Source: Clostridiales bacterium (GTDB lineage Bacteria; Bacillota; Clostridia; Christensenellales; DTU072). Taken from it: 64,000 nt of DNA. Location of the stretch: positions 64,104 through 128,103 of the forward strand of contig DUUO01000005.1 of NCBI GenBank assembly GCA_012841525.1. The letters run 5' to 3'. The position numbers and the translations under genes were made by a program. Numbering within the stretch: position 1 is the stretch's first letter; every line of letters begins with the position of its first letter. The notes below the pieces were generated by a model. It was not told the origin of the DNA. It saw only the letters and a list, made by a program, of their open reading frames with translations, and did no database searches. This document shows positions 4,647 to 62,727 of this stretch, piece by piece.

Positions 4647-6464
4647 ATGTCAAAAATTATAGGAATTGATTTAGGAACTACAAATTCATGTGTAGCTGTA
4701 ATGGAAGGTGGAGAACCTGTCGTAATACCAAATGCTGAAGGTTCAAGAACTACACCATCTGTTGTTGCATTTACGAAAGATGGTGAACGTTTAGTTGGTC
4801 AAGTTGCAAAAAGGCAAGCAATAGTAAATCCAGAACACACAGTTATGTCAATAAAAAGAGAAATGGGTACTGACCATAAGGTTAAAATAGATGATAAAAC
4901 TTATACAGCGCCAGAAATTTCTGCAATGATTTTACAAAAATTAAAAACTGATGCTGAAACATATTTAGGTTCAAAAGTAACGCAAGCAGTTATTACTGTA
5001 CCAGCATATTTTTCAGACAGTCAAAGACAAGCAACAAAAGATGCTGGAACTATTGCAGGACTGGAAGTGCTTAGAATTATCAATGAGCCAACTGCCGCTG
5101 CTTTTGCATATGGCATGAACAAAGATTCTCAAAAAATATTAGTATATGATTTGGGTGGCGGAACTTTTGATGTGTCAATATTAGATATTGGTGATGGTGT
5201 TATTGAAGTTCTTTCAACTAATGGAAACACAAAACTTGGTGGCGATGATTTTGATGAAAAAATCATGGATTGGGTTGTACAAGAATTTAAAAATGACAAT
5301 GGAATAGATCTTTCGAAAGATAAAATGGCTATGCAAAGAGTTAGAGAAGCAGCAGAAAAAGCAAAAATTGAGCTATCTACTTTAATGAAAGCAAATATTA
5401 ACTTGCCATTTATTACAGCAGGAGCAAATGGCCCATTGCATTTTGATAAAGATTTAACAAGGGCAAAGTTTAATGATATGACTGCAGAATTAATAAAATC
5501 TACTTTAGGTCCTGTTCGTCAAGCTCTAAAAGATGCTAAATTAAAAACAGATGATATAGATAGAGTTATACTAGTAGGTGGATCTACAAGAATACCTGCT
5601 GTTGTTGATGCTGTTGAATCTTTAATGGGTAAGGCACCATATAAAGGAATTAATCCAGATGAATGTGTTGCATTAGGTGCTGCAATTCAAGGTGGTGTTT
5701 TAGCAGGAGATGTTAAAGACATTTTACTACTTGATGTTACTCCGTTGTCTTTAGGTATTGAAACTTTAGGTGGAGTTTTTACAAAACTAATTGAAAGAAA
5801 TACAACGATTCCAACTAAAAAATCTCAAATATTCTCTACTGCTGCTGACAATCAACCAGCTGTTGATATTCATGTTTTACAAGGCGAAAGAGCAATGGCT
5901 GCTGATAATAAAACACTAGGTAGATTTGAATTAACAGGTATTCCACCAGCAATGAGAGGTGTACCACAAATCGAAGTTACTTTTGAAATTGATGAAAATG
6001 GTATTGTTTCTGTCACCGCACTTGATAAAGGTACAAATAAAAAAGCTAATATTGTTATAACTGCTTCAAGCAATTTGTCTGAAAGCGATATTGATAAAGC
6101 TGTTAAAGAAGCAGAACAATTCGCTGAAGAAGATAAGAAAAAGAAAGAATTAATTGATATGAAAAATGCTTGTGAACAATTAATATTGGCAATTGATAAA
6201 TCTTTAGTAGAAAGTGGAGATAAATTAACTGAAGAAGACAAAACTACACTTAAAGATGCCTCAAAAGAAGCAAAAGAAGAACTTGCCAAGGCTGAAACTG
6301 TTGAAGATGTTCAAAAAATTACAGAAAAATTATCTCAAGTATCTAATCCTATTTTTACAAAGTTATATCAAGATGCAACATCAAATGATGAAAATGGTGG
6401 AGATACAGGAACAAAATTTGATGATGGCACAACAATAAATGTTGATCCTGAAGATGTTCAATAA
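4647..6464 (+). CDS. dnaK: Molecular chaperone DnaK (Hsp70)
   Basis: [37 protein letters not shown] signatures. AAGGAG RBS upstream. Confidence 0.98.
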
Positions 6465-6492
6465 AGTTTAATAAAACTTAATAATTATAGAT

Positions 6493-6525
6493 GTAGCCAA
6501 GTTTATATTTGGCTACTTCTATTTG
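6493..6525 (+). terminator. Stem-loop between dnaK and dnaJ (possible partial terminator or attenuator)
   Basis: GTAGCCAA (6493-6500) / TTGGCTAC (6509-6516) with an 8-nt loop, followed by a weak T-rich tract ttctattt. Confidence 0.35.
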
Positions 6526-6566
6526 CAAAAACTAAATAAAAAACTACTAAGGATAATATAAAAATT

Positions 6567-7718
6567 ATGGCACAAAAAGATTATTATAAAATTTTAGGCG
6601 TAGACAAAAATGCCACTCAAGATGAAATTAAGTCAGCTTATAGAAAGCTTGCTAAACAGTGGCATCCTGATGTTTATGCAAATGACACTGAAGAAAAGAA
6701 AAAACAAGCAAAAGAAAAGTTCCAAGAAATTCAACACGCTTATAGCGTTTTATCTGATGCAGATAAAAAAGCAAAATATGATCAATTTGGTTCTGAAGAT
6801 GGGCCTCAATTTGATCCTAATCAAGGATTTAGCGGTGGATTTGGCAATTTTGGTGGTTTCGCCGATATTTTTGGTGATCTTTTTTCAAATTTTGGTGGAA
6901 GTGGTCATGATAGCAGAGCAAATGCAGCCAGAATGGGAGATGACATTGAGTTTATAATTAATCTTTCATTTGAAGAAGCAGCGTTTGGAATATCAAAAGA
7001 GATTAAGTTTTCAAGAGTCGAAAATTGTGTTGCATGTAAGGGAACTGGAGCAAAAAATGGAACTGCTTTTAAAACATGTACTCAATGTGGCGGTAAAGGT
7101 AGAATCACTGTTGATCAAAGGACTATGCTTGGTGTCATGAGAACTGAAAGAACTTGTGATATGTGTAATGGAACTGGAAAAATCATTACAGATCAATGTA
7201 CTGTTTGTTCTGGAAGAGGACGTATTAGAAAACAAAGAAGTGTTAATGTAAACATTCCAGCTGGTATTGATAACAATCAAATGCTTACTGTAAGAGGTGA
7301 AGGTAATGCTGGATTTAATGGTGGCGAAAATGGCAACTTAATATTAATTTTCAAAGTTAGTCCTCATAAATTATTTAGACGTGAAGGCAATAATTTGTTT
7401 ATGGATTTACCAATTAAGGTTTCTTTAGCAATTTTAGGTGGTTCAGTAGAAATTCCAACTTTAACAAAACGTGTTAAAATTAACATTCCACAAGGAACAC
7501 AAGATGGAGTAAGATTAAAAGTAAAAGGATATGGAATTAAAGATTTACGCAAGAAATCATATGGGGATTTATATATAAACATTAAGGTTGATATTCCTAA
7601 AAACTTAAATACTAAGCAGAAAAAAGCACTAAAAGATTCATTGTCAATACTTGATTCTGCACAATATGAAAATGTAGAAAAATATCAAAAGATTGAAAAT
7701 CAAATTTCTAAAAATTGA
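6567..7718 (+). CDS. dnaJ: Co-chaperone DnaJ (type I)
   Basis: J-domain with HPD (QWHPDVY), G/F-rich linker, four CxxCxGxG zinc-finger repeats. Ends with a TGA stop. Confidence 0.95.
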   Translation: MAQKDYYKILGVDKNATQDEIKSAYRKLAKQWHPDVYANDTEEKKKQAKEKFQEIQHAYSVLSDADKKAKYDQFGSEDGPQFDPNQGFSGGFGNFGGFADIFGDLFSNFGGSGHDSRANAARMGDDIEFIINLSFEEAAFGISKEIKFSRVENCVACKGTGAKNGTAFKTCTQCGGKGRITVDQRTMLGVMRTERTCDMCNGTGKIITDQCTVCSGRGRIRKQRSVNVNIPAGIDNNQMLTVRGEGNAGFNGGENGNLILIFKVSPHKLFRREGNNLFMDLPIKVSLAILGGSVEIPTLTKRVKINIPQGTQDGVRLKVKGYGIKDLRKKSYGDLYINIKVDIPKNLNTKQKKALKDSLSILDSAQYENVEKYQKIENQISKN

Positions 7719-10479: not shown

Positions 10480-13428
10480 ATGTTAAGAGTTAAAAACCTT
10501 GTAAAAATTTACGAAAGTGATGAATACAAAGTTGAAGCATTAAAGAACATAAGTTTATGTTTTAGAAATAATGAATTCGTTTCAATTTTAGGCCCTTCAG
10601 GGTGCGGAAAAACAACTTTTTTGAATATTATTGGTGGTTTAGATAGATATACATCAGGCAATGTAACAATTAGCGGAATATCTACAAAACATTTTTCAGA
10701 TAAACATTGGGATGCTTACAGAAATAATAGTGTTGGCTTTGTCTTTCAAAGCTATAATTTAATTCCTCATTTAAGCATATTAGACAATGTCGCTTTAACA
10801 CTAAGCCTTGCAGGAGTAACCAAAGCTCAAAGGATAAAGCGCTCAAAAGAAGTTTTAGATAAAGTTGGCTTATCAAATCAATACAATAAACTTCCATCAC
10901 AATTGTCTGGCGGACAAATGCAAAGGGTTGCAATCGCTAGAGCTTTGATAAATGAACCTGATGTCATTTTAGCAGATGAACCAACAGGAGCATTAGATGC
11001 AAAACTTAGTATTCAAGTTATGGAAATTTTAAAAGAAATTTCCAAAACAACTCTTGTTATCATGGTTACTCACAATGAAACTCTTGCGGAAACTTACAGT
11101 ACTAGAATAATTAAAATGTTAGATGGGGAAATTACAGATGATTCAAATCCTTTTAATGAAGTAGACGCTATTAAGGCTGATATAGATGAAATTAACGAAT
11201 TGGACATCTTACCTGAGGAGAAGAATCAACTTTTAAAATTACAATTAAAAGATTTAAATGAAATTGAAAATTCAAATAACAAACTTCAAAATGAAAAAGA
11301 AGACAGCGATATTTACAATGAAAATCAAAATATAATTGAAGATCTGAAAAATAAAATTAACAATATGATTTCAGACAATAAAAAATTAGCTGAGGAAAAA
11401 TTAAAATCTAAACCTAAATTTATACAGAAATTACACAGAAAGAAAAAAGACAAGGCCGCAGTAGTGGTTCCATTTAAGGGAACATCAATGAAATACAAAA
11501 CTGCCATTACACTGAGTCTAAAAAACCTTAACTCAAAAAAAAGAAGAACAATTTTAACTACTTTTGCAGGAAGCATTGGAATAATAAGCTTAGCGCTAGT
11601 AATGGCTTTATCGTGGGGCTACCAACAATATATAGAAAAAATGCAAAAAAATGTTTTAGCCTCGGTGCCTGTTTCTGTATATGAGTACACCATGAAGTAT
11701 GAAGACTTCACTAAAATGTTTTCAGGAATTGAAGGTAATGAAGAAAGGCCTTCCGAATACAGTGGTACGATATATTTAGATGATAATAGTTCATCTAATG
11801 CTGATATAGGAGAAATATTAACAAAATTGCTTGGTTCATTTGGATTAAATAATTTAAGTGAAGAATATTTAGATTATGTCTTAAAGTTAGATCCAAATTT
11901 ATATGATTCAATAAATGTTTTACATGGAAATCAATTTAATTTAATAACAAAAACAAAAGATGATTTAGGTAATCTTACATATGTGGATGTTAGTAAAACC
12001 CCTAATGCAACTGGAGCATTAAATATTGGCACAACTGTTTTGGGGGAACAAGGATTACAGACTAATAATTGGCATCAACTTGTAGGTAGCAAAAAATATA
12101 TTGAAGATTACTACAATGTCATAGAAGGTAAATATCCAGAATCAATGAATGAAATTGTTCTTGTTATAGATAATAAAAACACAATTGATATATCAGCCTT
12201 AGAAGACTTTGGTTTTGATGTATATGAACGAGATGATGATGGTAATATTTTATATGAACCAAAAATAGATAAGGAAAATAATATATTGTTAGATGAAGAT
12301 GGAAACCCAATTGATGATCTTGACAAGCCCAAAAAAATCAAAACTATCAAAATTGATGGAGATATTTCAAAAACTTTTGAATCACTAGGAACTTTTAAAT
12401 TAATAAATAATAATGATTATTATTTTAAGTATGAAGATTATTATGTAAGTCCTGCAAACTACGATGATAAATTAGAAGAAAGTTATAATAAATCTAGTTT
12501 AGAATTAAAAGTTGTTGGAATTTTAAAGCCTAATCCTAATAATCCAACAATGGGAAGTATAGTTGGCAATCATTTATGTTATACTCCAGAACTTGCAGAG
12601 TATGTTTATGAAACATCCATTAAATCTGAGGTAGCAAAAGCACAAATTGATGCTATAAAAAATGATAATACCGCTATTTTACCTGGTACAAAACCAATTG
12701 ATCCAGAAAGTTCAAAATCTAAATATAGAGTAGCAAAATTTACCAGTGTTGTAAGAGATAAAATTAATGGTGAAATAAAGACCTTTGAAGATGGTAATGC
12801 TCTTGCTCTTATTGGTGGAGGCTTAAAAGCTACTGCAGAACTACAAAGAATTGGGGCAATAAAAAACCCAAAATTCATTTCAATTTTTGCAACAAATTTT
12901 AACACTAAAAATGAGGTTATTAGTTATTTGGAAAAATATAATGAAGATAAACTTCCAAGGGATCAAATTGAGCATTTCGATATGTCTGAAATGTTTATAC
13001 AAAACATAAGAACTGTTATGAGTTTAATGACAATTGTTTTGCTTGCTCTTGCATCCATTTCTTTAATTGTATCTTCTATAATGATTGGAATAATTACTGG
13101 AAACTCAGTTTATGAAAGAACTAGAGAGATTGGTATGATGAGGGCTTTAGGAGCAAGAAAACAAGATATTGCTAGGGTATTTAATACTGAAACAGGGTTA
13201 ATAGGGCTATTTTCTGGTCTACTCGGTATTGTTATTCCGTATATATTAATTCCATTCATTAACATTGGATTAAAAGCAAGATTTTATGTCTCAAATATTT
13301 TAGTATTAAATCCTTTGCATGCATTTATTTTGTTGATTTTGAGTATGGTGTTGACCTTTATCGCAGGTATAATTCCGTCACAAATGGCAGCAAAACGTGA
13401 TATTGTAAGATCCATACGAACTGAATAG
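10480..13428 (+). CDS. Fused ABC transporter: ATPase + long linker + FtsX/MacB-type permease
   Basis: The N-terminal ATPase has all canonical motifs: GPSGCGKTT, LSGGQMQRVAIARAL, ILADEPTGALD, VTHN. An Asn/Glu/Lys-rich coiled-coil-like linker follows, then TM1, a large extracytoplasmic region and three C-terminal TM helices with an FtsX-like ending (RTREIGMMRALGARKQDI). Confidence 0.85.
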   Translation: MLRVKNLVKIYESDEYKVEALKNISLCFRNNEFVSILGPSGCGKTTFLNIIGGLDRYTSGNVTISGISTKHFSDKHWDAYRNNSVGFVFQSYNLIPHLSILDNVALTLSLAGVTKAQRIKRSKEVLDKVGLSNQYNKLPSQLSGGQMQRVAIARALINEPDVILADEPTGALDAKLSIQVMEILKEISKTTLVIMVTHNETLAETYSTRIIKMLDGEITDDSNPFNEVDAIKADIDEINELDILPEEKNQLLKLQLKDLNEIENSNNKLQNEKEDSDIYNENQNIIEDLKNKINNMISDNKKLAEEKLKSKPKFIQKLHRKKKDKAAVVVPFKGTSMKYKTAITLSLKNLNSKKRRTILTTFAGSIGIISLALVMALSWGYQQYIEKMQKNVLASVPVSVYEYTMKYEDFTKMFSGIEGNEERPSEYSGTIYLDDNSSSNADIGEILTKLLGSFGLNNLSEEYLDYVLKLDPNLYDSINVLHGNQFNLITKTKDDLGNLTYVDVSKTPNATGALNIGTTVLGEQGLQTNNWHQLVGSKKYIEDYYNVIEGKYPESMNEIVLVIDNKNTIDISALEDFGFDVYERDDDGNILYEPKIDKENNILLDEDGNPIDDLDKPKKIKTIKIDGDISKTFESLGTFKLINNNDYYFKYEDYYVSPANYDDKLEESYNKSSLELKVVGILKPNPNNPTMGSIVGNHLCYTPELAEYVYETSIKSEVAKAQIDAIKNDNTAILPGTKPIDPESSKSKYRVAKFTSVVRDKINGEIKTFEDGNALALIGGGLKATAELQRIGAIKNPKFISIFATNFNTKNEVISYLEKYNEDKLPRDQIEHFDMSEMFIQNIRTVMSLMTIVLLALASISLIVSSIMIGIITGNSVYERTREIGMMRALGARKQDIARVFNTETGLIGLFSGLLGIVIPYILIPFINIGLKARFYVSNILVLNPLHAFILLILSMVLTFIAGIIPSQMAAKRDIVRSIRTE

Positions 13429-17960: not shown

Positions 17961-18707
17961 ATGAAGATATCAAACTTAGAAAATTTAAAAGCAATACAAC
18001 AGGTTGAAATGGATATTGAAAACCTAAATTATTCTGTTGCTAGCAACAAAGATTATCAAAATTATCAAAAAACGATCAGTTTTTTGAAAAAATTTAATGA
18101 TGATATAAAAGACAATAAAGAAAATCTTAAACAAAAAGAAATAGATACAACTAAAGCTATTTCTGTTTTAAACGATTTTTATAAAATAACAAATGAGTTA
18201 CTTGAAAAAGCAAATGAATCTATATCACAAATAACAGAAAATGATATATCAATAGATGAATTAGAAGAACTTATAGAAGATTTTAAAAAACTTGATAATG
18301 ATCTAAAAACAAATGCAGAAAAATTAGTTAATTCAAAAAGACAGATATTTCAACTTGAATCAGAACAAGATAAAATAGAAAAAAACATCAAAGATCTCAT
18401 TAAAAATTTTAAAGTTAATAAACTAGAGCAAAAATATAAAGAGTTATATAAAACATATATGGCTGAAAAGGCAAAACTAGAACAAAAATTAAATGGTTTT
18501 TTCAAAGATGCTGATAAAAATGATTTGATTTTATACAAAAAAGTTAAAGATCAAGTCAAAAAATTACCAATAATTGTAAGAAAAAATAATGATCTTTGTA
18601 CGGGATGCAATTTGGAAATTGCTCCAAAAATTCAAAGTCAACTTAACAATAGTGGAGATTGTGCAATTTGTGATGAATGTCATAGAATAATTTATAATGG
18701 AGATTAA
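17961..18707 (+). CDS. Coiled-coil protein with C-terminal C4 zinc ribbon (DUF164/COG1579-like)
   Basis: Long heptad-like Lys/Glu/Asn region ending in CTGCNLEI...CAICDECHRII. The usual partner of nif3. Confidence 0.7.
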   Translation: MKISNLENLKAIQQVEMDIENLNYSVASNKDYQNYQKTISFLKKFNDDIKDNKENLKQKEIDTTKAISVLNDFYKITNELLEKANESISQITENDISIDELEELIEDFKKLDNDLKTNAEKLVNSKRQIFQLESEQDKIEKNIKDLIKNFKVNKLEQKYKELYKTYMAEKAKLEQKLNGFFKDADKNDLILYKKVKDQVKKLPIIVRKNNDLCTGCNLEIAPKIQSQLNNSGDCAICDECHRIIYNGD

Positions 18708-18709
18708 AT

Positions 18710-19897
18710 ATGGTTAAAGTAAACAAAAATTATAATAATTTAAATCAAAGTTACCTTTTTTCAACAATAACAAAAAAGAGAAATGAATTTATAAAAAATA
18801 ACCCAGATAACAAATTAATACGTCTTGGAATCGGCGATGTTACAAGACCACTAACAAAGCCTGTTGTTGATGCACTTGTTAAAGCAAGCTTAGAGATGGG
18901 GGATGCTAAAACATTTAAGGGTTATGGTGATGAGCAAGGCTATGGTTTTTTACAAGACGCTATTAAAAAATATTATAAAGACATCAATGGTGTGTCATTA
19001 GAAAACAGTGAAATATTTATTTCTGATGGAGCAAAAAGCGATATAGCAAACTTTACTGATTTATTTTCTAATGAAAATACAATTATTATCCCTGATCCTG
19101 TTTATCCTGTATATTTAGACAGCAACATGATGCTTGGCAGAAAAATTGTATTAATTGAAGGAAATAAGGAAAACGGATTTAAACCTTTACCATTTGAAGG
19201 CTTAACGGGTGATATTGTGTATCTTTGTTCACCAAATAATCCTACTGGTGCTGTTTATTCACACTCAGAACTTAAATTGTGGGTTGATTTTGCATTGAAA
19301 AATAATATGATAATATTGTTTGATAATGCTTATGAAGCTTTTGTTAATGATAGGAGTTTGCCAAGAAGTATCTATGAAGTTGATGGGGCCGAAAAATGTG
19401 CTGTAGAATTTAATTCTTTAAGTAAAACAGCTGGCTTTACTGGAACAAGATGTGGTTATACAATTGTACCTCAAAATTTGATTTTTGAAGGGAACAATTT
19501 AAATAAAATGTGGCTTAGAAGACAAACTACTAAATTTAATGGCGTTTCTTATATTGTACAAAAAGGCGCTGAAGCTGTATTTTCAGAAGAAGGATTAAAA
19601 TCATGTATGGAAAACATTGAATATTATATGGAGAATGCTAAGTTGATATCAGACACATTAACTAAATGTAATGTATGGCATACTGGAGGCATTAACTCCC
19701 CATATATATGGCTTTCTTGTGGAATGGATAGTTGGGAGTTTTTTGATAAACTTTTGAATGAAGCACAAATTGAAGGAACTCCAGGAAGTGGTTTTGGGAA
19801 ATGTGGTGAAGGTTATTTTAGGTTAACTGCATTTAACACTCGTGAAAACACAATAGAAGCAACAAAACGACTAGAAAAGTTTTTTAAAAATAAATAA
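18710..19897 (+). CDS. dapL: LL-diaminopimelate aminotransferase (DapL-type)
   Basis: N-terminus ...NYNNLNQSYLFSTI...IRLGIGDVTRPL, PLP lysine region SLSKTAGFTGTRCGY, about 395 aa. Confidence 0.85.
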   Translation: MVKVNKNYNNLNQSYLFSTITKKRNEFIKNNPDNKLIRLGIGDVTRPLTKPVVDALVKASLEMGDAKTFKGYGDEQGYGFLQDAIKKYYKDINGVSLENSEIFISDGAKSDIANFTDLFSNENTIIIPDPVYPVYLDSNMMLGRKIVLIEGNKENGFKPLPFEGLTGDIVYLCSPNNPTGAVYSHSELKLWVDFALKNNMIILFDNAYEAFVNDRSLPRSIYEVDGAEKCAVEFNSLSKTAGFTGTRCGYTIVPQNLIFEGNNLNKMWLRRQTTKFNGVSYIVQKGAEAVFSEEGLKSCMENIEYYMENAKLISDTLTKCNVWHTGGINSPYIWLSCGMDSWEFFDKLLNEAQIEGTPGSGFGKCGEGYFRLTAFNTRENTIEATKRLEKFFKNK

Positions 19898-40666: not shown

Positions 40667-40699
40667 TTGTATTTTAATTTAACTTAAATAAAAAGATTC

Positions 40700-40727
40700 A
40701 AAACCCCTGAAATAGGGGTTTTGTGCA
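40700..40727 (+). terminator. Strong rho-independent terminator after pnp
   Basis: AAAACCCC (40700-40707) / GGGGTTTT (40715-40722) with a 7-nt loop. The GC core is conspicuous in this AT-rich DNA. Confidence 0.8.
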
Positions 40728-40825
40728 TTAAAAGTGTTTATACTCTAAAATTTTATCTATTTAATCTTTATGTTGACTATATATTGCTTAACTTATATTA
40801 TATAATTATAAAGTCAAAGGAAACT

Positions 40826-43800: not shown

Positions 43801-44374
43801 ATTAAAGTTTATTGATGATTTTGCTTTTTTTGCTAGTTCCATTAGTGAATTTAGCTTAGGTGAAAATATTACTTATCTAGGACATCATGCTTTTGCAAAT
43901 TGTGAAAACCTTGATCAAGTTGAGTCAGTGATGTTCTCTGATAAAATTGATTTTGGAGCAAATGTTTTTGAAAACACTAAATGGTTAATTAGGGAAAGAG
44001 CGAGCCATAAACAAATAATTATTGGCAATATTTTAGTTGAAAGCATTATAAATTCAACTGATACAACTATTGAAATTGATGACAAAGTTAGCATTATTGC
44101 TGATAATGCTTTTGTATTTAATGTACAAGATAATCAACCATTTAACGATATTACAATAAAATTTAGAGAAAGCTCTAATATTAATTCGTTTGGAAACAAT
44201 GTTTTTACAAATACAATTAAGAAGTTAATAATACTAAATGACGATGATATTATACTAACTGAAACTTCATTGAATAATGTTTTACTTCTTGAAACAAAAC
44301 AGTCTAGAGTAGAGTATTTCAATATGCAACTTGCTAATCTTGAAAATAGTACATTGCCAATAGTTGGAGTTTAA
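40826..44374 (+). CDS. Large surface lipoprotein with Listeria/Bacteroides-type (Flg_new) repeats and a BspA-type leucine-rich-repeat C-terminus
   Basis: Start at ATG 40826 after AAAGGAAA. Signal peptide plus lipobox (MNKKKRFLYSIFFILLISISMFLFAC). Repeats of the type LTFDANGG...REGYDFAGWY and YDVTFTDD...ITGYETYWFN. C-terminal pattern INSYAFANFKNI...IDDFAFFASSISEF...LGHHAFANCENL. The track start at 40721 runs through the pnp terminator and is rejected. Confidence 0.75.
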   Translation: MNKKKRFLYSIFFILLISISMFLFACNKGTSTQKDLLLLKTDVSQLTFIEDEVHLDEIAFEYIDINGNVIELNGNDLEISETDRESLNTPGFKSITFKYNNSEHIVCFLVQEKPTIYNYNLTFDANGGFFSTINAETLSITSGEILRSPPETPVREGYDFAGWYPNYHFIESDKLITPYKISPEVTSFVAKWLSTKRHEVSYKKQQGEQISNIKKIDNMTISDGESIHLINKNEFQDYDILIKNNSVDEYLKYNFVGYKIETFDESTGENVVKFLPSNHTDAIEISNKTTIILVFEINKYDVTFTDDNNVELKKIKVEYGKKVNTEDIPEKPSITGYETYWFNKTLNKDYRVEDIENVTRNISIQLKKTIIRITVNFYDEDNIKLTNISNVYEYGKSIGANKTVPHKNGYDGKWRFNVNDIDTFYEPVQLQNLILNIALYPQIESSKQISFYATYTKKRYTLRFHYDLPEQEGLIFEKEIEYGDRINAKATMNSNLFALKYVGASGQYFSGYDFSLYKNSTWHYSIDKTNPSTIVNDNHSFDDQNAILNQNPPWDRSVYDFYFNPIKEFNESNISFSYPDPENFDVLLLASDDIIKVEISNSLVKILNTSKLMEYYPRHTIDKWAYNETVDIDDNKLIYQSYKNNYKYFRDDVVYYDAKFYKLSSDESINNAPGVDDSWEILSGIKTKQVEISSDDLYKFNLNEKHLFSEDPLINNSIYPIFKERKFSLQIYDQTFQTTPIATNGRYIYSYEFIKKYENLDYTYDDEINFNSLINQYLSSQEYSDGTVSNFELMGLFEDKAFQSVSYNRTSSINIKTDIKLYAKWIDLNFGSDGLVFSKIDNETAALIDFEPQINTLNTKINLNLVIPNFWQETKVKVIKQNALKNLIKYSNIEIENFTLPEFLSEIENDELKNIKVNNSILIANTNTKFNVENNILYENIEGGQRNIVKVPINIDIMGNIAQVFSNVYSINSYAFANFKNILTLTTSDHPSLKFIDDFAFFASSISEFSLGENITYLGHHAFANCENLDQVESVMFSDKIDFGANVFENTKWLIRERASHKQIIIGNILVESIINSTDTTIEIDDKVSIIADNAFVFNVQDNQPFNDITIKFRESSNINSFGNNVFTNTIKKLIILNDDDIILTETSLNNVLLLETKQSRVEYFNMQLANLENSTLPIVGV

Positions 44375-44383
44375 TTTTATTAT

Positions 44384-47300
44384 ATGTCCCCAAAAAACAA
44401 ATTAAAAAATCAAAAACTTTTACAAAATCAAAAACTTTTACAAAATCATGCTGATATATATCATTTGGAATTTGATGATTTTTCTAGATTAACTTTTTTT
44501 AACTCTTTATCAAAAGAAGATATTAGATATCTTATTACAAAATATAAAATAGATTTAACAGTCGAAGAATTTGAAAATTTAAAACTCATTTACAAAAAAA
44601 GCTTTCCTACAATATTGGAACTAAAAGTATTGGCAAAATATTGGGAAACAAGCCTAAGCCTTGTAAGTGCTCATATAAACAAAATAGAAATTAAATCTGG
44701 CTCCAATAAAATTAATGATACTCTAAAAAAAATTAATATTTTAAGAAAAAAACAAAACAAATCAAACATTTTATCTTTAAATGAAATATTTAATTTGTAT
44801 GACAAAAATTTGGAACAAAAAAAAATAAAAAGTTTAAATATGAGTGACAACTTACAAGCTTTGTCATGCTCAGCATATACTCCTAAAGGGAAAAAAACAT
44901 ACAGTTTAAATAGTTTTACAAGTTATGAAACCCTTGATAACAACTCATTATACAAAGCTATGATAAAAGGTTATGAGCATGAATTTGATTTAATGTTTTC
45001 TTTTCGATTTGATTTAAATAAAAGTTTATTAGAAAACTACATTGAATATGGATTTAAATCGTCAAATGCATGGATTTCTAGTATTTCAATATCAAGTAAA
45101 TTAGAAGAAAATAAAATGAATGTTTTTGATGTCTCAACAGTAATAGGCTTTGCAGACAAAAGCAAAATTCATCATTTTAATTTAAGTAATAACGATAAAA
45201 TTTTATTAATTCGTTTAAATAATGAAAAAAATGATTTACTTAATGTTTTGAATTTGTCTATGAATTGTTTTTTTAAAAAACATAACAGTTTCGCTGTGAT
45301 TAATGATTATAGTTTGTTTTTTAATTTAACAAATATTACAAAAAGCTTCAATATAAACATTAATTTGCTTAAAAAACAAAATATAGACTTAGATGAGTTT
45401 TTATTTTCGGAGCAATTAAAATATATTGCTGTGATAGTAAAAGAAAAACACATTACTGAGCTTTTAAGTGCTGCAAAAATTAAAAATCTTGATATTTTTG
45501 AAATTGGACAGATTAAAGATAATAATTATTATGAAATGTTTTTAAACGGAAATAAGGTTTTTTCAATTTACAATGAATTGCTCCATAACAAACCTAAACA
45601 AAATAATGTGGCAATAATAGATGAAGATATGAGTTATGATGCTATCCATTCTATGCTAGGTATAAATTTCAAAGAAACCGCTCTCAAAGATCTAAAAACA
45701 TTAAATACCGATTGTGATAGTGTTGCATTAAATTCATATTTGTCAGGAAACACTATAGTTGGACCTTATTTAGGAGAAACTCAAGCTACAACTTCTCAAG
45801 CTTTTTCCATATATCCAAATTATTTTAAAATAAAAGATTTTAAAGTTGGCATCGCTTTTTCTGAATCTGACAAACAAATAAACTTCATTAAAACTATTTC
45901 TACATTAACTACAACTTTGCTAAAAATAATTACAAAAGGCTATCCTATACATCAAGTTGTTTTAGAGGTTTTTTTGTTCAATAATAAAAATGATAAACCT
46001 AAAGAAATTGGGGAATTCCTATCTACGGCACTTGCCTGTTATGAATTTCAAAGTTTAACATCAATTCCTGTATTTAAACCTAAATTTAAGTTTCTAGATA
46101 GTCCTTCGGAAAATTCTTATCTTTATGTAAATGGTTATGGATATACAAACGGAAAAATTGTAAACAATGTATTTAAACAAGGAGATAAAATCTTTCGCCT
46201 TTCAATTGAAAAAGATTCTGATGGTTTGTCAGACTTTAACAAAATTTTGAAGCTATCAAGCACGATAACCATGAATATTGAAGTAGGTAACATTACAGCA
46301 GCATCTTATGTTGAAAAAAACATCATTAATACAATTATCATTAATACTCTTAATGCTAATTTAGGTTTTTCCTTTTCTATTATGGATAAATCATTCTTAC
46401 ATAGCGATTCTTTTGAAATTCTTCTTGCGATAAAAGATGTATCTGAAATTACAGCTTTTGATCTAGATTATATAGGTGTTGTTGATGGCTCTGGTGTAAT
46501 TCGATTTGCAAATTTTCAAATTACAAACTCTGAAATTCTTAAACAATTAAACAAAAAAACATTAACTAAATTAGAAAGCACAAAAAAAACAGAAAACAAA
46601 AACGTGCCCAAAATAATTCCCAAAATTAAAAAATCAAAATCAAATGCTTTAATTATATCGTTCGATAGATGTTCTATTTCAATATATTCAAATATTTTGA
46701 CATCCATAGGATTTAATGTAAAAGAAAAATTACTTGCGCCTAATTTTGTAATTACTGATTCATTAATTAGAGATTTGCGGGATAGTATTACTAAGTCAAA
46801 TATTATTTTAATAACTGGTGATATTCCAAATGAAAATCTTAAATATTATAATCATTTAATAAATATAATCAGAACTCCTAGTGTTTTAGATGCAATTAAT
46901 CAAGCATTGCATTCTTATAATGCTCTTATTTTTGCTTCTGGGGTAGGGGCGAAAATTTTATTTCAGCTTGGATTTATTGAAATGGGGAATTCTGAAGAAA
47001 AACCAAAATTTTCCAATTTCAATCAAGTTGAAACTCCATTAAATAAATTATTTAGATTTTCTTTAATAAATAAAAATAATTTATGGTTAAAAAATACAAC
47101 TATTAATTGTTGTAACTGTTCAATTAGTAGCAAAAATAATCATTTTAAATTACCACTTATAGAAATCGAAAAAATGTTAAAAAATGGACAAATTATAGCT
47201 CAATATAATTATGATAAATTTGCTATAAGCTCTAATCAAAAAAATATAAAAGATTTTATGGATTTATCGCCCGTTGGAATAACATCACCAAAAGGTAATA

Positions 47301-47404
47301 TTTGTGGTTTTTTGCCAAGTATTGAAAAATGTATACACACTTCTATAGAAAATTATCTTCTACTTGTTGAAATGTTTACTAATGCTTACAACTATTTAGA
47401 TTAA
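44384..47404 (+). CDS. FGAM synthase-like (PurL+PurQ fusion-like) protein with degenerate catalytic motifs, putative pseudoenzyme
   Basis: 1006 aa, no signal peptide. Collinear resemblance to PurL: DLTVEEFENLKLIYKKSFPTILELKVLAKYWETSL vs the ...EF..I...LGR.P...E...F...WSEHC region, LMFSFRFD vs LNSLRFG, FSEQLKYIAVIVKEK...LDIFEIGQIKDN vs SESQERMLLVVEKG...IG.VTD, ITAASYVEKN vs AAHD.SDGGL. Resemblance to PurQ: ALIFASGVGAKILFQLGFIE vs LG.CNGFQ.L...GLLPG, GITSPKGNICGFLPSIEK vs GI.N..GNVLGMMPHPER. That it is a real ORF is near certain. The family call is by eye. Confidence 0.6.
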   Translation: MSPKNKLKNQKLLQNQKLLQNHADIYHLEFDDFSRLTFFNSLSKEDIRYLITKYKIDLTVEEFENLKLIYKKSFPTILELKVLAKYWETSLSLVSAHINKIEIKSGSNKINDTLKKINILRKKQNKSNILSLNEIFNLYDKNLEQKKIKSLNMSDNLQALSCSAYTPKGKKTYSLNSFTSYETLDNNSLYKAMIKGYEHEFDLMFSFRFDLNKSLLENYIEYGFKSSNAWISSISISSKLEENKMNVFDVSTVIGFADKSKIHHFNLSNNDKILLIRLNNEKNDLLNVLNLSMNCFFKKHNSFAVINDYSLFFNLTNITKSFNININLLKKQNIDLDEFLFSEQLKYIAVIVKEKHITELLSAAKIKNLDIFEIGQIKDNNYYEMFLNGNKVFSIYNELLHNKPKQNNVAIIDEDMSYDAIHSMLGINFKETALKDLKTLNTDCDSVALNSYLSGNTIVGPYLGETQATTSQAFSIYPNYFKIKDFKVGIAFSESDKQINFIKTISTLTTTLLKIITKGYPIHQVVLEVFLFNNKNDKPKEIGEFLSTALACYEFQSLTSIPVFKPKFKFLDSPSENSYLYVNGYGYTNGKIVNNVFKQGDKIFRLSIEKDSDGLSDFNKILKLSSTITMNIEVGNITAASYVEKNIINTIIINTLNANLGFSFSIMDKSFLHSDSFEILLAIKDVSEITAFDLDYIGVVDGSGVIRFANFQITNSEILKQLNKKTLTKLESTKKTENKNVPKIIPKIKKSKSNALIISFDRCSISIYSNILTSIGFNVKEKLLAPNFVITDSLIRDLRDSITKSNIILITGDIPNENLKYYNHLINIIRTPSVLDAINQALHSYNALIFASGVGAKILFQLGFIEMGNSEEKPKFSNFNQVETPLNKLFRFSLINKNNLWLKNTTINCCNCSISSKNNHFKLPLIEIEKMLKNGQIIAQYNYDKFAISSNQKNIKDFMDLSPVGITSPKGNICGFLPSIEKCIHTSIENYLLLVEMFTNAYNYLD
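44408..44448 (+). repeat. Perfect 18-bp in-frame tandem repeat (2 copies plus 5 nt) at the 5' end of the PurL-like gene
   Basis: aatcaaaaacttttacaa at 44408-44425 and 44426-44443, then aatca. Encodes NQKLLQ-NQKLLQ-N. Confidence 0.9.
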
Positions 47405-47462: not shown

Positions 47463-47969
47463 ATGAAAATAGCTCTTTTAGTTTTGTTTCCATTAATTGC
47501 TGTTATAACACTAATATGGAGTGTTTTTTGTATGATAAAGATTTATAAATTAAATCAAAAATTTAAATCTTCTAAAGTTTTGCTTAAATTAAAATCTAGA
47601 CAAACTCTGCCAATCATAGCAATTAGTCTGCTTTCAATATTTTTAATATTGGATATAATTTATTTAGGAATAAAAAAAGAATACGCAATCGGCTTTTCTC
47701 TTTTTGTGATAATAATTAGTTTTATTTCATTATTTGGATTTGTTTTATCATTTAAGTCTGGCATCCTAGATTCAGGTTTAATTATACCTTATAAATTTAT
47801 TTCTAAAGACAGCAATTTTTCATTTAGTATAGACAAAAATCACATTTGTTTCTACGGAGACAAAAAAGGATTTGATACAATAACTTCAGCTATTACAAGA
47901 CTTTATTTTGACAGTGAAAATAAAAATGAACTTTTAGAAACATTAAACAGCTTGAAAAGTGATTCTTAA
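47463..47969 (+). CDS. Small integral membrane protein (three predicted TM helices plus a ~70-aa soluble C-terminus), function unknown
   Basis: Hydrophobic segments at about aa 3-25, 49-71 and 75-97. GAGAGAGG RBS. Possible extended -10 (TGTTATAAT) in the 58-bp gap upstream. Confidence 0.6.
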   Translation: MKIALLVLFPLIAVITLIWSVFCMIKIYKLNQKFKSSKVLLKLKSRQTLPIIAISLLSIFLILDIIYLGIKKEYAIGFSLFVIIISFISLFGFVLSFKSGILDSGLIIPYKFISKDSNFSFSIDKNHICFYGDKKGFDTITSAITRLYFDSENKNELLETLNSLKSDS

Positions 47970-47981
47970 AAGAAACATAAT

Positions 47982-49169
47982 ATGCCTAATAAAAAATCGC
48001 AATTTTTAAAAAATAGAATAGAAGAGTACATTTCTATTTTACCATTAATTAGTCTAAAATCATTTAAGTTTCCATTAAAAAATGATTACATTATTTCTAT
48101 TCAAAACAAATTAAAAAAAAATGAAAACATCGATAATATTGATAAACACATACAAAATTTCGAACATGCAATTAACCGTTCTTTAATGAGTATTTGTGGG
48201 TTTGGTATTTTTAATTTTTTGCCTAATAAAGTTGAATGTTTAGTTGAAATAGAGGATAAGGTATATTCTTTTAATGGACAAACTAATGGATTTTTCAATG
48301 TTAAACTTATTAATAGTGATAACAAAATTGTTTGTGACAAGAAAACAATTAATAATGGATTAATCTCTCTTAATTTTACTGATAATAATGAAATGTTTTT
48401 TATCGCAGATAATAAAAAATTTTTCATAAAATCTGATGTCTATGCAGGAAAAAAACAACAAAAAATAAAAATATTTGACACATATATTTTAGGCGATAGC
48501 GTTAATGCTATAATGGAATCTAATTCGAAAATTTTAAACATAAAGCAAAGTATTTCTTCACTGATTAATGACAATAAATTTAGTTTTACATATATTTTAG
48601 ATCGAAAATGCTCTGATTCTTTTACTTTTGTTTTAAATTTTGATAAACCACAAAAACTATTAAATAAGCATAAAGATTTTTGTTATATGTTGTATGAGTA
48701 TGAAGGGTTTAGCATTATTACTGGTGAAAATTCCATAGGATATGATAATAAAATTGAATATGCTTTCAAAAAAATAAATAATAAAAATGGAATAATAAGA
48801 GAATTAATTGAATTTACTATTCTTTTTAATCCAAATAATTCTTCGGAAACACAAAAACAAATAATTAATCAACTTTATTTGAAGAGCAAACCATTAGTTA
48901 AAATAATATCAGATAAAATAATTGATGATATATCTTTATATAAAACTTCGAACGAAAAAATTATTTTAAATAATATATATTTGGCAGAAAATAATATAGG
49001 AATTATTATTCAAATAGAAAATATTTCTAGTGAAGAGGAAATAGCAAAAATTAATTATGCTAATCTTGAACCAAAATATGTATTAAATGATAATCTAGAC
49101 AAAAAAGAAAGATGTTTTTCGGGAGTAAAACTAAAATCAAAAGAAAAAATGTTTTTACTTATGCAATAG
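47982..49169 (+). CDS. Hypothetical protein (395 aa, no signal peptide or TM), function unknown
   Basis: Long uninterrupted ORF 12 nt after the preceding gene. I recognise no motif. Beta-rich, Asn/Lys/Ile-rich composition. Confidence 0.55.
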   Translation: MPNKKSQFLKNRIEEYISILPLISLKSFKFPLKNDYIISIQNKLKKNENIDNIDKHIQNFEHAINRSLMSICGFGIFNFLPNKVECLVEIEDKVYSFNGQTNGFFNVKLINSDNKIVCDKKTINNGLISLNFTDNNEMFFIADNKKFFIKSDVYAGKKQQKIKIFDTYILGDSVNAIMESNSKILNIKQSISSLINDNKFSFTYILDRKCSDSFTFVLNFDKPQKLLNKHKDFCYMLYEYEGFSIITGENSIGYDNKIEYAFKKINNKNGIIRELIEFTILFNPNNSSETQKQIINQLYLKSKPLVKIISDKIIDDISLYKTSNEKIILNNIYLAENNIGIIIQIENISSEEEIAKINYANLEPKYVLNDNLDKKERCFSGVKLKSKEKMFLLMQ

Positions 49170-49207: not shown

Positions 49208-49291
49208 TGGTGCGGTTGATGGGACTTGAACCCATACGGTATTTACCATACGCCCCTCAAACGTACGCGTCTGCCATTCCGCCACAACCGC
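49208..49291 (-). tRNA. tRNA-Leu (anticodon GAG), type II with long variable arm, CCA encoded
   Basis: Reverse complement reads GCGGTTG-TG-GCG-GAATGGCAGA-CGC-G-TACGT-TTGAGGG-GCGTA-TGGTAAATACCGT-ATGGG-TTCAAGT-CCCAT-CAACCGC-A-CCA. All four stems pair and the T-loop is TTCAAGT. Confidence 0.9.
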
Positions 49292-61121: not shown

Positions 61122-61192
61122 GGTTAAAAAAATTAAAATTGTTAACCAAAACAATGTTTAAATTTAAACAACATTATTATATGAGGAATAAC

Positions 61193-61366
61193 ATGAAACA
61201 AATTAACATTATTGCAAAAAATACATTTGATAAAAACCATAAAATTGGATGTAATGAATGTCAAGCAAGCTGTCAATCTGCTTGTAAAACTAGTTGTACT
61301 GTAGGAAATCAATCTTGTGTTTTTCAAGATGTAGCAGTAAATAAAAAAGAGTCTGACAGGGCTTAA
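61193..61366 (+). CDS. scfA: SCIFF (six-cysteines-in-forty-five) ranthipeptide precursor, 57 aa
   Basis: MKQINIIAKNTFDKNHKIGCNECQASCQSACKTSCTVGNQSC... matches the remembered SCIFF core GCGECQ(T/A)SCQSACKTSCTVGNQ.C. ATG 61193 follows GAGGAA. The longer track ORF (61139) adds an implausible N-terminus. Confidence 0.85.
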   Translation: MKQINIIAKNTFDKNHKIGCNECQASCQSACKTSCTVGNQSCVFQDVAVNKKESDRA

Positions 61367-62727
61367 TGGTTCATTTTTTTACATTTAATCATAATAATAT
61401 TGAATATTATTTTATTTGGGATATTGAAAGTGGCAGCTTATTTAATGTAAGTAATGTCGCTTTTTTATGTGCCAAAAATTTGTATGGAACACTTAGCGAC
61501 CGAGAGTCTGACTTATTTAATAAAACTCCCAAAGATGACATTAAGTTTTTTAGTAATGAATTTAAATTATTAGAACAAGATGGTTGCTTAAATTCTAAAC
61601 AATCTGTAAAAAGTTTTAAAAAAAATTTAAATTATGTTAAAGCCCTTTGTTTACACATATGTCATGATTGCAATTTAAATTGTGATTATTGCTTTGCAGG
61701 TGGTGGAAAATATAATTCTCCAAAAGATTATATGACTTTTGATGTTGGTAAACATGCGATTGATTTTTTGATTGAAAACAGTGGTAACATTAAAAACATT
61801 GAAGTTGATTTTTTTGGTGGAGAACCGTTGATGAACTTTGATGTCGTTAAAAAAATCACCGATTATGCTAAAATCACTGCAAAAAATAGCAATAAAAATA
61901 TTTATTTTACTCTTACAACTAACTGTTTGTTGTTAAACGAAGATAAAGCAAATTACTTAAACGAAGAAATGGATAATGTTGTATTGAGCATTGATGGCAG
62001 AAAAGAAACTCATAATGCAGTCAGACATTCATTAAATAATAAAAATGCATTTGATATTATTTTAAATAATGCTAAATATTTTGTAAAAATACGTGGCAAT
62101 AGAAAATATTATGTAAGAAGTACTTTTACAAATAAAAATTTAGATTTTTCTAACGATGTCGAATTTTTAAGAAAAGAAGGATTTTCGCAAATATCTGTAG
62201 AGCCAGTTGTATTACCAAAAAATCATAAACTTGCAATTCAAGAAAAACATATTGAAAAAATTAATAATGAATATGATAATTTAGCAAATTCGTATATACA
62301 AAAAAGAGAAGAGGGGAATTGGTATAATTTTTTCCATTTTATGATTGATCTAGAAAAAGGTCCTTGCATATCAAAAAGATTAACAGGTTGTGGCGCTGGG
62401 GTTGAATATTTAGCAGTTAGTCCTAGCGGCGATCTTTATCCTTGCCATCAATTCGTTGGTAAAGAAAAATTCAAAATAGGAAATGTTTTTGATGGAATTA
62501 ATAAAAGTGAAATTCGTGAATCATTTGCAAATAATACAGTTTTAATAAAAGAAAATTGTAAAAATTGTCCAGCAAAATATTTTTGTGGTGGTGGTTGCGC
62601 ATCAAATTCTTATAATTTTACTGGTTCAATATCAAATACTTACGATATAGGATGCAAAATGCTTGTTAAACGTTTTGAAAATAGTCTCGCAATTTCTGCA
62701 ATTGAAAAAATTGCATCCAATTCTTAA
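61366..62727 (+). CDS. scfB: SCIFF radical SAM/SPASM thioether-forming maturase
   Basis: CNLNCDYC radical-SAM cluster motif. C-terminal SPASM cysteines (CGAG...YPCHQF, CKNCPAKYFCGGGC). Start overlaps the precursor stop (TAATG). Confidence 0.85.
   Translation: MVHFFTFNHNNIEYYFIWDIESGSLFNVSNVAFLCAKNLYGTLSDRESDLFNKTPKDDIKFFSNEFKLLEQDGCLNSKQSVKSFKKNLNYVKALCLHICHDCNLNCDYCFAGGGKYNSPKDYMTFDVGKHAIDFLIENSGNIKNIEVDFFGGEPLMNFDVVKKITDYAKITAKNSNKNIYFTLTTNCLLLNEDKANYLNEEMDNVVLSIDGRKETHNAVRHSLNNKNAFDIILNNAKYFVKIRGNRKYYVRSTFTNKNLDFSNDVEFLRKEGFSQISVEPVVLPKNHKLAIQEKHIEKINNEYDNLANSYIQKREEGNWYNFFHFMIDLEKGPCISKRLTGCGAGVEYLAVSPSGDLYPCHQFVGKEKFKIGNVFDGINKSEIRESFANNTVLIKENCKNCPAKYFCGGGCASNSYNFTGSISNTYDIGCKMLVKRFENSLAISAIEKIASNS

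Follow-up and report, generated by a model that had tools for sequence, protein, structure and literature searches.

Comparative genomics of an FGAM-synthase-derived pseudoenzyme of bacteria and its conserved gene neighbours

Background

Formylglycinamidine ribonucleotide (FGAM) synthase (EC 6.3.5.3) occurs as a single chain (large PurL, lgPurL; the clostridial type is NCBIfam TIGR01857) and as small PurL (smPurL) with PurQ and PurS, as in Thermotoga maritima PurLQS (3D54). Canonical lgPurL holds a structural ADP in an auxiliary site, as seen in the Salmonella lgPurL structures (e.g. 1T3T). Enzyme-deficient pseudoenzymes with the FGAM synthase fold are described from gammaherpesviruses, where they are called vFGARAT or vGAT (the ORF75, BNRF1 and ORF3 family; PMC7605207). 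These are ~1300-aa tegument proteins that keep an N-terminal region and whose targets are host nuclear and innate-immunity factors (PMC7605207). Until now, dead FGAM synthases have been treated as peculiar to gammaherpesviruses, in which they are important immune-evasion factors, and in the full-text literature, our coverage of which was incomplete, we found only viral examples and no bacterial pseudo-FGARAT or PurL-like pseudoenzyme. Here we describe an FGAM-synthase-derived pseudoenzyme in bacterial form, with a new genomic partnership. Its gene lies in a 64,000-nucleotide stretch (the window) of the Clostridiales bacterium assembly GCA_012841525.1 (contig DUUO01000005.1, positions 64,104 to 128,103, forward strand) and, in window coordinates, is:

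44384..47404, + strand: pseudo-FGAM synthase, second gene of a conserved trio; 1006 aa, ATG start, no internal stops

The original prediction, made by a model from the letters and the translated open reading frames (ORFs), was of a bacterial FGAM synthase homologue without its catalytic motifs, yet not in decay. TIGR01857, hhalign, Foldseek and substitution rates all agree with that view, with the amendments given below.

Homology and fold

At the sequence level the protein matches TIGR01857 with an E-value of 1.4e-23 (82.4 bits, below the equivalog cut-off of 1057), and it matches the smPurL models only at E 6e-4 (NF002290) and 5e-3 (TIGR01736). Pfam GATase_5 (PF13507) is found at residues 823-1004 (E 3.9e-7; 29.9 bits, which passes the gathering score of 27) and in 18 of 18 members of the family defined below (best E 8.1e-34); AIRS_C is reached by sequence in only one of these 18. 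When a profile of the 18 ~1000-aa proteins was compared by hhalign with a profile of 16 canonical enzymes, the two aligned over 986 columns with 100% probability and E 6.3e-94, family positions 18-1005 corresponding to canonical positions 161-1246.

An AlphaFold2 (AF2) model built from the 18-member family alignment has a mean pLDDT of 81.3 and a pTM of 0.84, residues 1-22 falling below pLDDT 50. Foldseek searches of the PDB with this model gave Salmonella lgPurL as the best match (6jt9, 1t3t and others; E 5.7e-34, query-normalised TM-score [TMq] 0.65), with human PFAS (9nb3) at TMq 0.67; together 6jt9, 1t3t and 9nb3 span E ~1e-32 to 6e-34 and TMq 0.64-0.67. Behind lgPurL and PFAS come smPurL and then PurM, HypE, ThiL and SelD (E 1e-7 to 2e-9), and the fold of both the AIRS N-domain and the AIRS C-domain is present. 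An earlier AF2 run on nine sequences that included canonical enzymes reached a pLDDT of just 55.7, yet its top Foldseek match was still lgPurL. A sequence search of the PDB with a four-sequence profile found no match, and structure comparison was needed.

The following domains can be placed by alignment to canonical enzymes, P0036 among them, and on the model:

44462..44818, + strand: remnant of the helical linker domain, residues ~27-145, with SNKINDTL as all that is left of the NPHI..A..Y block
44831..45169, + strand: A1 subdomain remnant, residues ~150-262, placed by the THNHP-block alignment; beta-sheet kept in the model
45185..45589, + strand: B1 (AIRS_C-like) subdomain, residues ~268-402; canonical AIRS_C (P0036 residues 427-579) aligns here
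45731..46153, + strand: A2 subdomain, residues ~450-590, placed by alignment and hhalign; GGKDSMSG lost, FDSTIG replaced by LNSYLSG
46181..46549, + strand: B2 subdomain, residues ~600-722; the most constrained, with a ratio of non-synonymous to synonymous substitution rates (dN/dS) of 0.09
46637..47401, + strand: class-I glutaminase-like domain, residues ~752-1006, placed by Pfam GATase_5 and alignment

Within the first of these, the canonical FGAR-AT_linker (P0036 residues 173-217) corresponds to residues ~49-91, and B2 carries the family-specific motifs GNITAA..VE, LGFSF and YIGVVDxSG. The protein thus shares with TIGR01857 FGAM synthases the order of linker, A1-B1-A2-B2 and glutaminase domain, the three-dimensional arrangement (TM 0.65-0.67), and the blocks PT..ELK..D.YW, SP.G...G and the GNI.SA..VE region. 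What it lacks are the N-terminal domain, the catalytic loops and the functional motifs, and it also lies outside a pur operon.

On both profile and model evidence the protein is a homologue of single-chain clostridial-type FGAM synthase along its whole length. It had been proposed to be an smPurL fused to PurQ; the preference for TIGR01857 and the full-length single-chain hhalign match rule this out. Its PurM-like core does match smPurL structures (E 1e-22 to 4e-24, target-normalised TM-score about 0.63), but unlike the smPurL complexes it has a linker domain of the lgPurL type, its glutaminase domain is part of the same chain, and its best sequence relatives are single-chain. Since the family aligns from canonical column 161 and its best relatives are single-chain, it is a derivative of single-chain lgPurL (TIGR01857 type). 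About 240 aa have been lost from this parent: the PurS-like domain at the N-terminus (~160 aa, the first ~160 canonical residues having no counterpart in the family) and catalytic loops amounting to ~80 aa.

Catalytic and ligand sites

Motifs were compared in a MAFFT L-INS-i alignment of the ~1000-aa proteins, the intermediate forms described below and 10 canonical enzymes. In the window protein none of the nine motif blocks is intact, each having been either replaced or deleted. In the synthetase part, WSDHCRH has become WETS--LSL, with loss of the first catalytic His; the THNHP block, a 27-letter stretch in canonical enzymes, is reduced to a short SLNSFTSYE…TLDNNSLY with a 13-residue deletion, so that ETHNHP..GGAATC..IRD is not retained; the GGxTGRDGxGGATGSS…AEVQKGN loop is deleted; NDFGAGG is now INDYSLF; and SESQERM is now FSEQLKY. 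GGKDSMSG, the motif of the auxiliary ADP site in Salmonella lgPurL, has become KPKFKFLD. In the glutaminase part, GICNGFQ is replaced by ASGVGAK (the nucleophile Cys is now Gly853), SHGEG by SSKNN, and GHxER by PSIEK, in which the triad His is Ser979 and the Glu (Glu981) is kept. Glu981 is the sole survivor of the Cys-His-Glu triad, and the Cys is absent from every ~1000-aa relative aligned. The synthetase motifs, including the acidic and Gly-rich ATP-binding motifs of the PurM/AIRS superfamily, are likewise replaced or deleted, the former in every ~1000-aa relative as well as in the window protein.

The same picture emerges from column counts. Within the region covered, 207 columns are invariant in the 10 canonical enzymes, and the window protein matches 36 of them. 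For the polar subset (102 columns) the figures are 17 retained and 22 deleted. Conservation in 80% or more of the family is seen at just 17 of the invariant canonical columns, mostly Gly, the polar ones being Glu79, Asp271, Gln936, Ser968 and Glu981. A regular-expression survey separated the two groups cleanly: WSDHC, THNHP, DxGAGG and GICNGFQ are each missing from all ~1000-aa relatives, and nearly every full-length match of ~1240 aa contains the complete set.

These losses had been called by eye in the original prediction. All the peptides it quoted are in the translation (YWETSLSL, SFTSYE, AASYVEKNI, ASGVGAK, LPSIEK, SFRF, SEQLKYIAVIVKEK...LDIFEIGQIKDN and GITSPKGNICGF), and the losses hold in the alignment with the canonical enzymes, where no catalytic residue was found at a nearby shifted position of the window protein. 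One of them is less telling than supposed: AAHD.SDGGL is indeed lost, but it is an smPurL motif of which the parent clade has only [AS]xVxxGG. With the PurS-like domain, the FGAR (formylglycinamide ribonucleotide)/ATP and auxiliary nucleotide sites and the glutaminase Cys and His all gone, the protein should be unable to make FGAM and is most likely non-catalytic. Although homologous to the TIGR01857 FGAM synthases, it qualifies as one of them on no functional criterion.

Could the scaffold have acquired a new active site, for example one that modifies the lipoprotein precursor encoded next to it? Migrated catalytic residues are sometimes seen in pseudoenzymes in general (PMC10211241), Glu981 and Ser968 are conserved in the family, and the dN/dS of B2 is 0.09. 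However, the positions that are invariant or nearly so in the 18 members are mostly Gly, Pro or hydrophobic, no Cys/His/Lys cluster is family-wide, canonical enzymes share the conserved Ser968 and Glu981, which are thus inherited rather than new, and the nucleotide-binding loops have been deleted outright. We regard a neo-functionalised PurM-like or GATase-like enzyme as distinctly improbable. More improbable again is a sensor role, in which the protein would have kept its affinity for FGAR, ATP/ADP or glutamine and would signal the purine or nitrogen state of the cell to the envelope proteins. The kept fold and interdomain arrangement, and the structural ADP in the auxiliary site of canonical lgPurL, would suit such a sensor, but none of the three ligand sites has kept its residues: replacement or deletion has affected them all, the GGKDS motif and the nucleophile elbow that binds glutamine among them.

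Family and selection

The prediction also called for a survey of homologues. Word-index homology searches returned only 3-6 relatives, probably because the K/N/I-rich composition swamps the candidates with chance word matches, and it was an exhaustive profile search of 1.8 billion representatives that exposed the family. This gave 104 matches, of which the first roughly 20-25 are full-length ~1000-aa proteins, followed by genuine ~1240-aa FGAM synthases. The window protein is accordingly not a singleton: its motif losses recur across a family that falls into roughly 20-25 clusters at the 50% identity level. In source databases these proteins are named 'hypothetical protein' (in Christensenellales, Clostridiales and Clostridia metagenome-assembled genomes), some carry the IMG name 'FGAM synthase-like amidotransferase family enzyme', and no family-specific model was found in NCBIfam, Pfam or PADLOC. 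The IMG label could wrongly credit reduced genomes with a step of the purine pathway. A further label, 'DUF3987 domain-containing protein', attached to 744-aa members of the 90%-identity cluster of one distant orthologue (P0004), is a clustering or look-up artefact unrelated to the family; P0116 is an unrelated DUF3987 primase-helicase protein (PF13148, 2e-94).

Is the gene simply decaying, or an artefact of gene calling in AT-rich DNA? Long ORFs are less surprising at the local GC content of 24%, and the divergence from the enzyme is extreme. But intact full-length orthologues exist at 99% (P0001, at loci L013 and L014), 64% (P0002; L001 and L003), 51% (P0003; L002), 25% (P0004; L004) and 21% identity (P0110; L005), and the ORF is intact in six closely related loci (L001, L002, L003, L011, L013 and L014) as well as across the roughly 20-25 clusters. 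The Nei-Gojobori dN/dS stands at 0.17 for the pairs that are not saturated, namely window/L013 and L001/L003 (29 synonymous and 20 non-synonymous changes), and at 0.23-0.28 for distant pairs; the comparison genes pnp and clpB gave 0.08 and 0.11. Each domain is constrained, and the dead glutaminase domain has a dN/dS of 0.15-0.28 in pairs with enough substitutions. The gene is maintained by purifying selection across species. The dN/dS range of 0.17-0.28 and the conservation effectively refute the pseudogene reading, to which the confident AF2 fold and the hhalign match (E 6e-94) are also opposed, and we give it next to no weight. Loss of catalytic residues, purifying selection and cross-species conservation taken together identify the protein, as far as sequences can, as a pseudoenzyme, and we consider this status solid.

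At the strain level the gene is less uniform, as its disordered N-terminus carries a duplication that is single-copy in the 99%-identical, 1000-aa P0001 and is a slippage indel or polymorphism:

44408..44443, + strand: perfect 18-bp tandem duplication, AATCAAAAACTTTTACAA twice, encoding NQKLLQ twice (NQKLLQNQKLLQ)

A conserved three-gene module

The pseudo-FGAM synthase gene is the middle member of a trio, which is set in the window among these features:

40699..40723, no strand assigned: G+C-rich hairpin CAAAACCCCTgaaatAGGGGTTTTG just 3' of the pnp stop codon; reported on the - strand, palindromic stem
40773..40801, + strand: sigma-70-like promoter candidate TTGACT-17-TATTAT, 10 of 12 positions, 25 nt 5' of the lipoprotein start codon
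40826..44374, + strand: lipoprotein, trio gene 1, 1182 aa, with lipobox (LFAC), Flg_new repeats and C-terminal BspA-type LRR_5
47463..47969, + strand: three-transmembrane (three-TM) protein, trio gene 3, 168 aa, 58 nt 3' of the pseudo-FGAM synthase gene; three TM helices, then a C-terminal domain of ~70 aa with a predicted cytoplasmic location
47982..49169, + strand: 395-aa ORF of no recognisable family, 12 nt 3' of the three-TM gene and outside the conserved trio
49208..49291, - strand: convergent tRNA-Leu(GAG), the downstream boundary of the unit, before clpB

The lipoprotein starts at the ATG at 40826, after the ribosome-binding site AAAGGAAA. Its lipoprotein signal is MNKKKRFLYSIFFILLISISMFLFAC (…FLFAC), its single hydrophobic segment is N-terminal (residues 5-30), and Pfam finds Flg_new, the Listeria-Bacteroides repeat, at 8.7e-13 and LRR_5, a leucine-rich repeat (LRR), at 1e-10. 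The 9-nt link to an adhesin-like lipoprotein claimed in the original prediction was right: the lipoprotein stop is at 44374 and the pseudo-FGAM synthase start at 44384. A GGAG at 44367-44370, within the last codons of the lipoprotein gene and 13 nt before the ATG of the pseudo-FGAM synthase, is compatible with translational coupling. The pseudo-FGAM synthase itself has no signal peptide and no TM segment by sequence and hydropathy analysis.

The 168-aa product is 36-38% identical to the products of genes found 3' of the family members at the two distant loci (L004 and L005), and the ~170-aa proteins share the invariant motif PY.FI...I.F.GD..G.DT..S. The loop after its first hydrophobic segment is K/R-rich (seven K/R in residues 28-50), and by the positive-inside rule the C-terminal domain is predicted to be cytoplasmic. 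It has no match in Pfam or the PDB. A PH domain at its C-terminus was considered, but it is a guess, the bPH_7 match being non-significant (E 0.56, two of five members) and the PDB providing none.

The linkage is stronger than had been claimed, as it includes the third gene and is kept down to 21-25% identity. Close relatives are fully syntenic (hemZ-rpsO-pnp-lipoprotein-pseudo-FGAM synthase-168 aa-395 aa-clpB), and the order lipoprotein, pseudo-FGAM synthase, ~170-aa TM gene is found in the window, at L001-L003, at L004 (25%) and at L005 (21%), neighbouring genes being separated by between 1 and about 60 nt or overlapping slightly. At L004 and L005 the trio consists of a ~1100-aa Flg_new/LRR_5 lipoprotein, a ~1000-aa pseudo-FGAM synthase and a ~170-aa protein, the first junction being 1-4 nt and the second 36 nt or an overlap. 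Their lipoproteins align with that of the window collinearly and over the full length (25% identity, E 2e-51 for L004; 24%, E 1e-59 for L005), both have a lipobox, and on this alignment the three are true orthologues. The 395-aa ORF, for which Pfam, NCBIfam and PADLOC gave no match, is absent from that position at L004 and L005 and is kept only in close relatives (L002, L003, L011 and L013; dN/dS 0.2-0.3). PADLOC defence models match none of the four genes, and we dropped a defence-system reading.

The transcription unit likely spans from the hairpin and promoter candidate to the convergent tRNA-Leu. The hairpin is the likely pnp terminator and a plausible upstream boundary of the module. As to the tRNA, it is the only Rfam or ARAGORN match in the 64 kb, the Rfam scan giving neither a purine riboswitch nor any other element.

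Are the neighbours coupled to the pseudo-FGAM synthase, or is the arrangement an inherited gene order around a standalone pseudoenzyme, acting for instance as a regulator, a chaperone or a partner of a canonical enzyme? The trio occurs in related organisms (the RuvC proteins of the window and of L004 share 62% identity), ruvC-ruvA lie a few kb downstream at L004 as in the window, three lineages were sampled, and there is a precedent in the herpesvirus vGATs, which recruit the cellular enzyme PFAS (PMC7605207). On the other side, both flanks of the trio are rearranged at L004 and L005 while order, orientation and short gaps or overlaps are kept: at L004 the trio is preceded by rarA, rubrerythrin, ABC, ruvX and others and followed by genes for a GH38 mannosidase and an MFS transporter, and at L005 a divergent, non-orthologous metallo-beta-lactamase gene is upstream. 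Furthermore, the three genes diverge at matching, unusually fast rates; set against 62% for RuvC, the trio diverges much faster than housekeeping genes and yet stays linked. We therefore think an uncoupled, standalone role unlikely.

Two other genes for surface-type proteins are found at L004, an MBG_2/MBG_3-domain protein directly 5' of the lipoprotein (5115-6578) and a 290-aa LRR_5 protein further downstream (18483-19355), suggesting that this region is rich in surface proteins.

Proposed role

The reading that we favour, with moderate confidence, is that the protein is a selected pseudoenzyme derived from lgPurL that works as a non-catalytic cytoplasmic scaffold or adaptor together with the co-encoded envelope proteins. 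It would have kept the fold and the domain order (linker, A1-B1-A2-B2 PurM-like core, class-I glutaminase domain) while losing the chemistry, and would be expressed from a single operon with a surface BspA-LRR/Flg_new lipoprotein and a three-TM protein, the three evolving together and fast. The cytoplasmic C-terminal domain of the three-TM protein may tether the pseudo-FGAM synthase at the membrane, where the tethered scaffold could serve the biogenesis or export, the anchoring or the function of the surface lipoprotein. Docking might take place on the surface that loss of the N-domain has left bare, although this is speculation. Non-catalytic function, co-transcription, physical association and membrane tethering are what we infer from the sequences, and any statement on function is inferential.

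Several points weigh against this proposal. The three-TM protein would expose outside the cell only ~2 N-terminal residues and a loop of 4-5 residues, making a direct bridge to the extracellular lipoprotein not obvious. That the family conserves few polar residues fits a scaffold, yet it points to no binding site. The promoter and terminator scans did not rise above shuffled expectation in this AT-rich DNA. Gene context was checked in three independent lineages only, and with ruvC-ruvA shared by L004 and the window the adjacency may in part be inherited order. Lastly, the absence of pur genes covers the 64-kb window and L001-L005 alone. Pfam scans of ~48 ORFs of the window brought up nothing from purine biosynthesis, nor were any pur genes found at L001-L005; the description of the gene as an orphan thus stands for the window but is not shown genome-wide. 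The fear that the gene might sit in a degraded pur operon in relatives proved unfounded in every relative examined, the lipoprotein/pseudoenzyme/TM trio being there instead.

If the proposal is right, a 1000-aa metabolic enzyme has been exapted as a structural or scaffolding element for a surface adhesin. The conserved operon supplies a concrete, testable set of partners, namely the surface LRR lipoprotein and the small membrane protein, and in the bacterial family it becomes practicable to study what use such a scaffold has after losing its chemistry.

Parallels in viruses and other degenerate lineages

In the BFVD database the top structural matches of the window protein, with E-values from 4e-32 to 1e-24 and TMq reaching 0.60, are tegument proteins of the vFGARAT group. 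The two groups are alike in having a full-length FGAM synthase fold without catalytic function; the bacterial family differs in being ~1000 aa long, chromosomal and linked to envelope genes. In a rough neighbour-joining distance tree the ~1000-aa family is related to the sampled clostridial-type enzymes. The bacterial family would then be an exaptation independent of the viral one, and a selected family of this kind would illustrate how a very large enzyme scaffold can be repurposed independently.

Single-chain FGAM synthase seems to have degenerated in other lineages also. Five ~1250-aa proteins (P0021, P0035, P0038, P0042 and P0051) have intact synthetase motifs and a replaced glutaminase nucleophile (e.g. 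GIDDGFA, GLGNGAN, GIGEGFK), and may be ammonia-dependent or half-dead intermediates. Three ~1200-aa proteins (P0029, P0072 and P0101) have lost most motifs; the 1217-aa P0029-like protein keeps the N-domain, with GGKDS as the sole motif retained. Genes of the P0029 type are flanked by gyrA and a recX-like gene in five metagenome contigs of 33-34% GC (L006-L010; AUXO01..., JAEEGL01..., JAEEGH01...; e.g. L007 4531-8184), with no LRR lipoprotein and no 170-aa TM gene in that context; it was the only lineage returned by a metagenome scan for further gene contexts, which yielded no trio. These lineages derive from the same parent type as the ~1000-aa family but keep the N-domain, are ~1200-1270 aa long and form separate branches in the distance tree. 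This suggests repeated decay of single-chain FGAM synthase in Firmicutes, and the intermediate lineages (glutaminase-dead only, and full-length with all sites dead) are a natural series for the decay of a three-site enzyme into a pseudoenzyme.

More tentatively, all this may add up to an undescribed bacterial family of dead lgPurL proteins that forms the cytoplasmic part of a fast-evolving three-protein envelope module in uncultivated low-GC Firmicutes with small genomes, as an independent parallel to the vFGARATs and one of several conversions of lgPurL into a pseudoenzyme.

Other features of the window

With a GC content of about 27%, the window is an ordinary low-GC Firmicutes-type chromosome. 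Nearly all its genes are on one strand and include lepA-hemN-hrcA-grpE-dnaK-dnaJ-prmA, dnaG-sigA, polA, thyA-folA, rpsO-pnp, clpB, ruvCAB and queA-tgt. The dnaK operon, dnaG-sigA, polA, pnp, clpB and ruvABC thus place the pseudo-FGAM synthase gene in a bacterial chromosome, and phage and plasmid collections contained no match to its product.

Positions 10480-13428 encode a fused transporter of the MacB/FtsEX type, a single 982-aa polypeptide with an ABC ATPase domain in its N-terminal part and an FtsX-like permease domain in its C-terminal part. After queA-tgt and yajC comes a small ORF (61139-61366) encoding ...GCNECQASCQSACKTSCTVGNQSC..., directly 5' of a radical-SAM/SPASM gene (61366-62727); the pair presumably corresponds to a SCIFF (six-cysteines-in-forty-five) peptide and its maturase, which are common in Clostridia.

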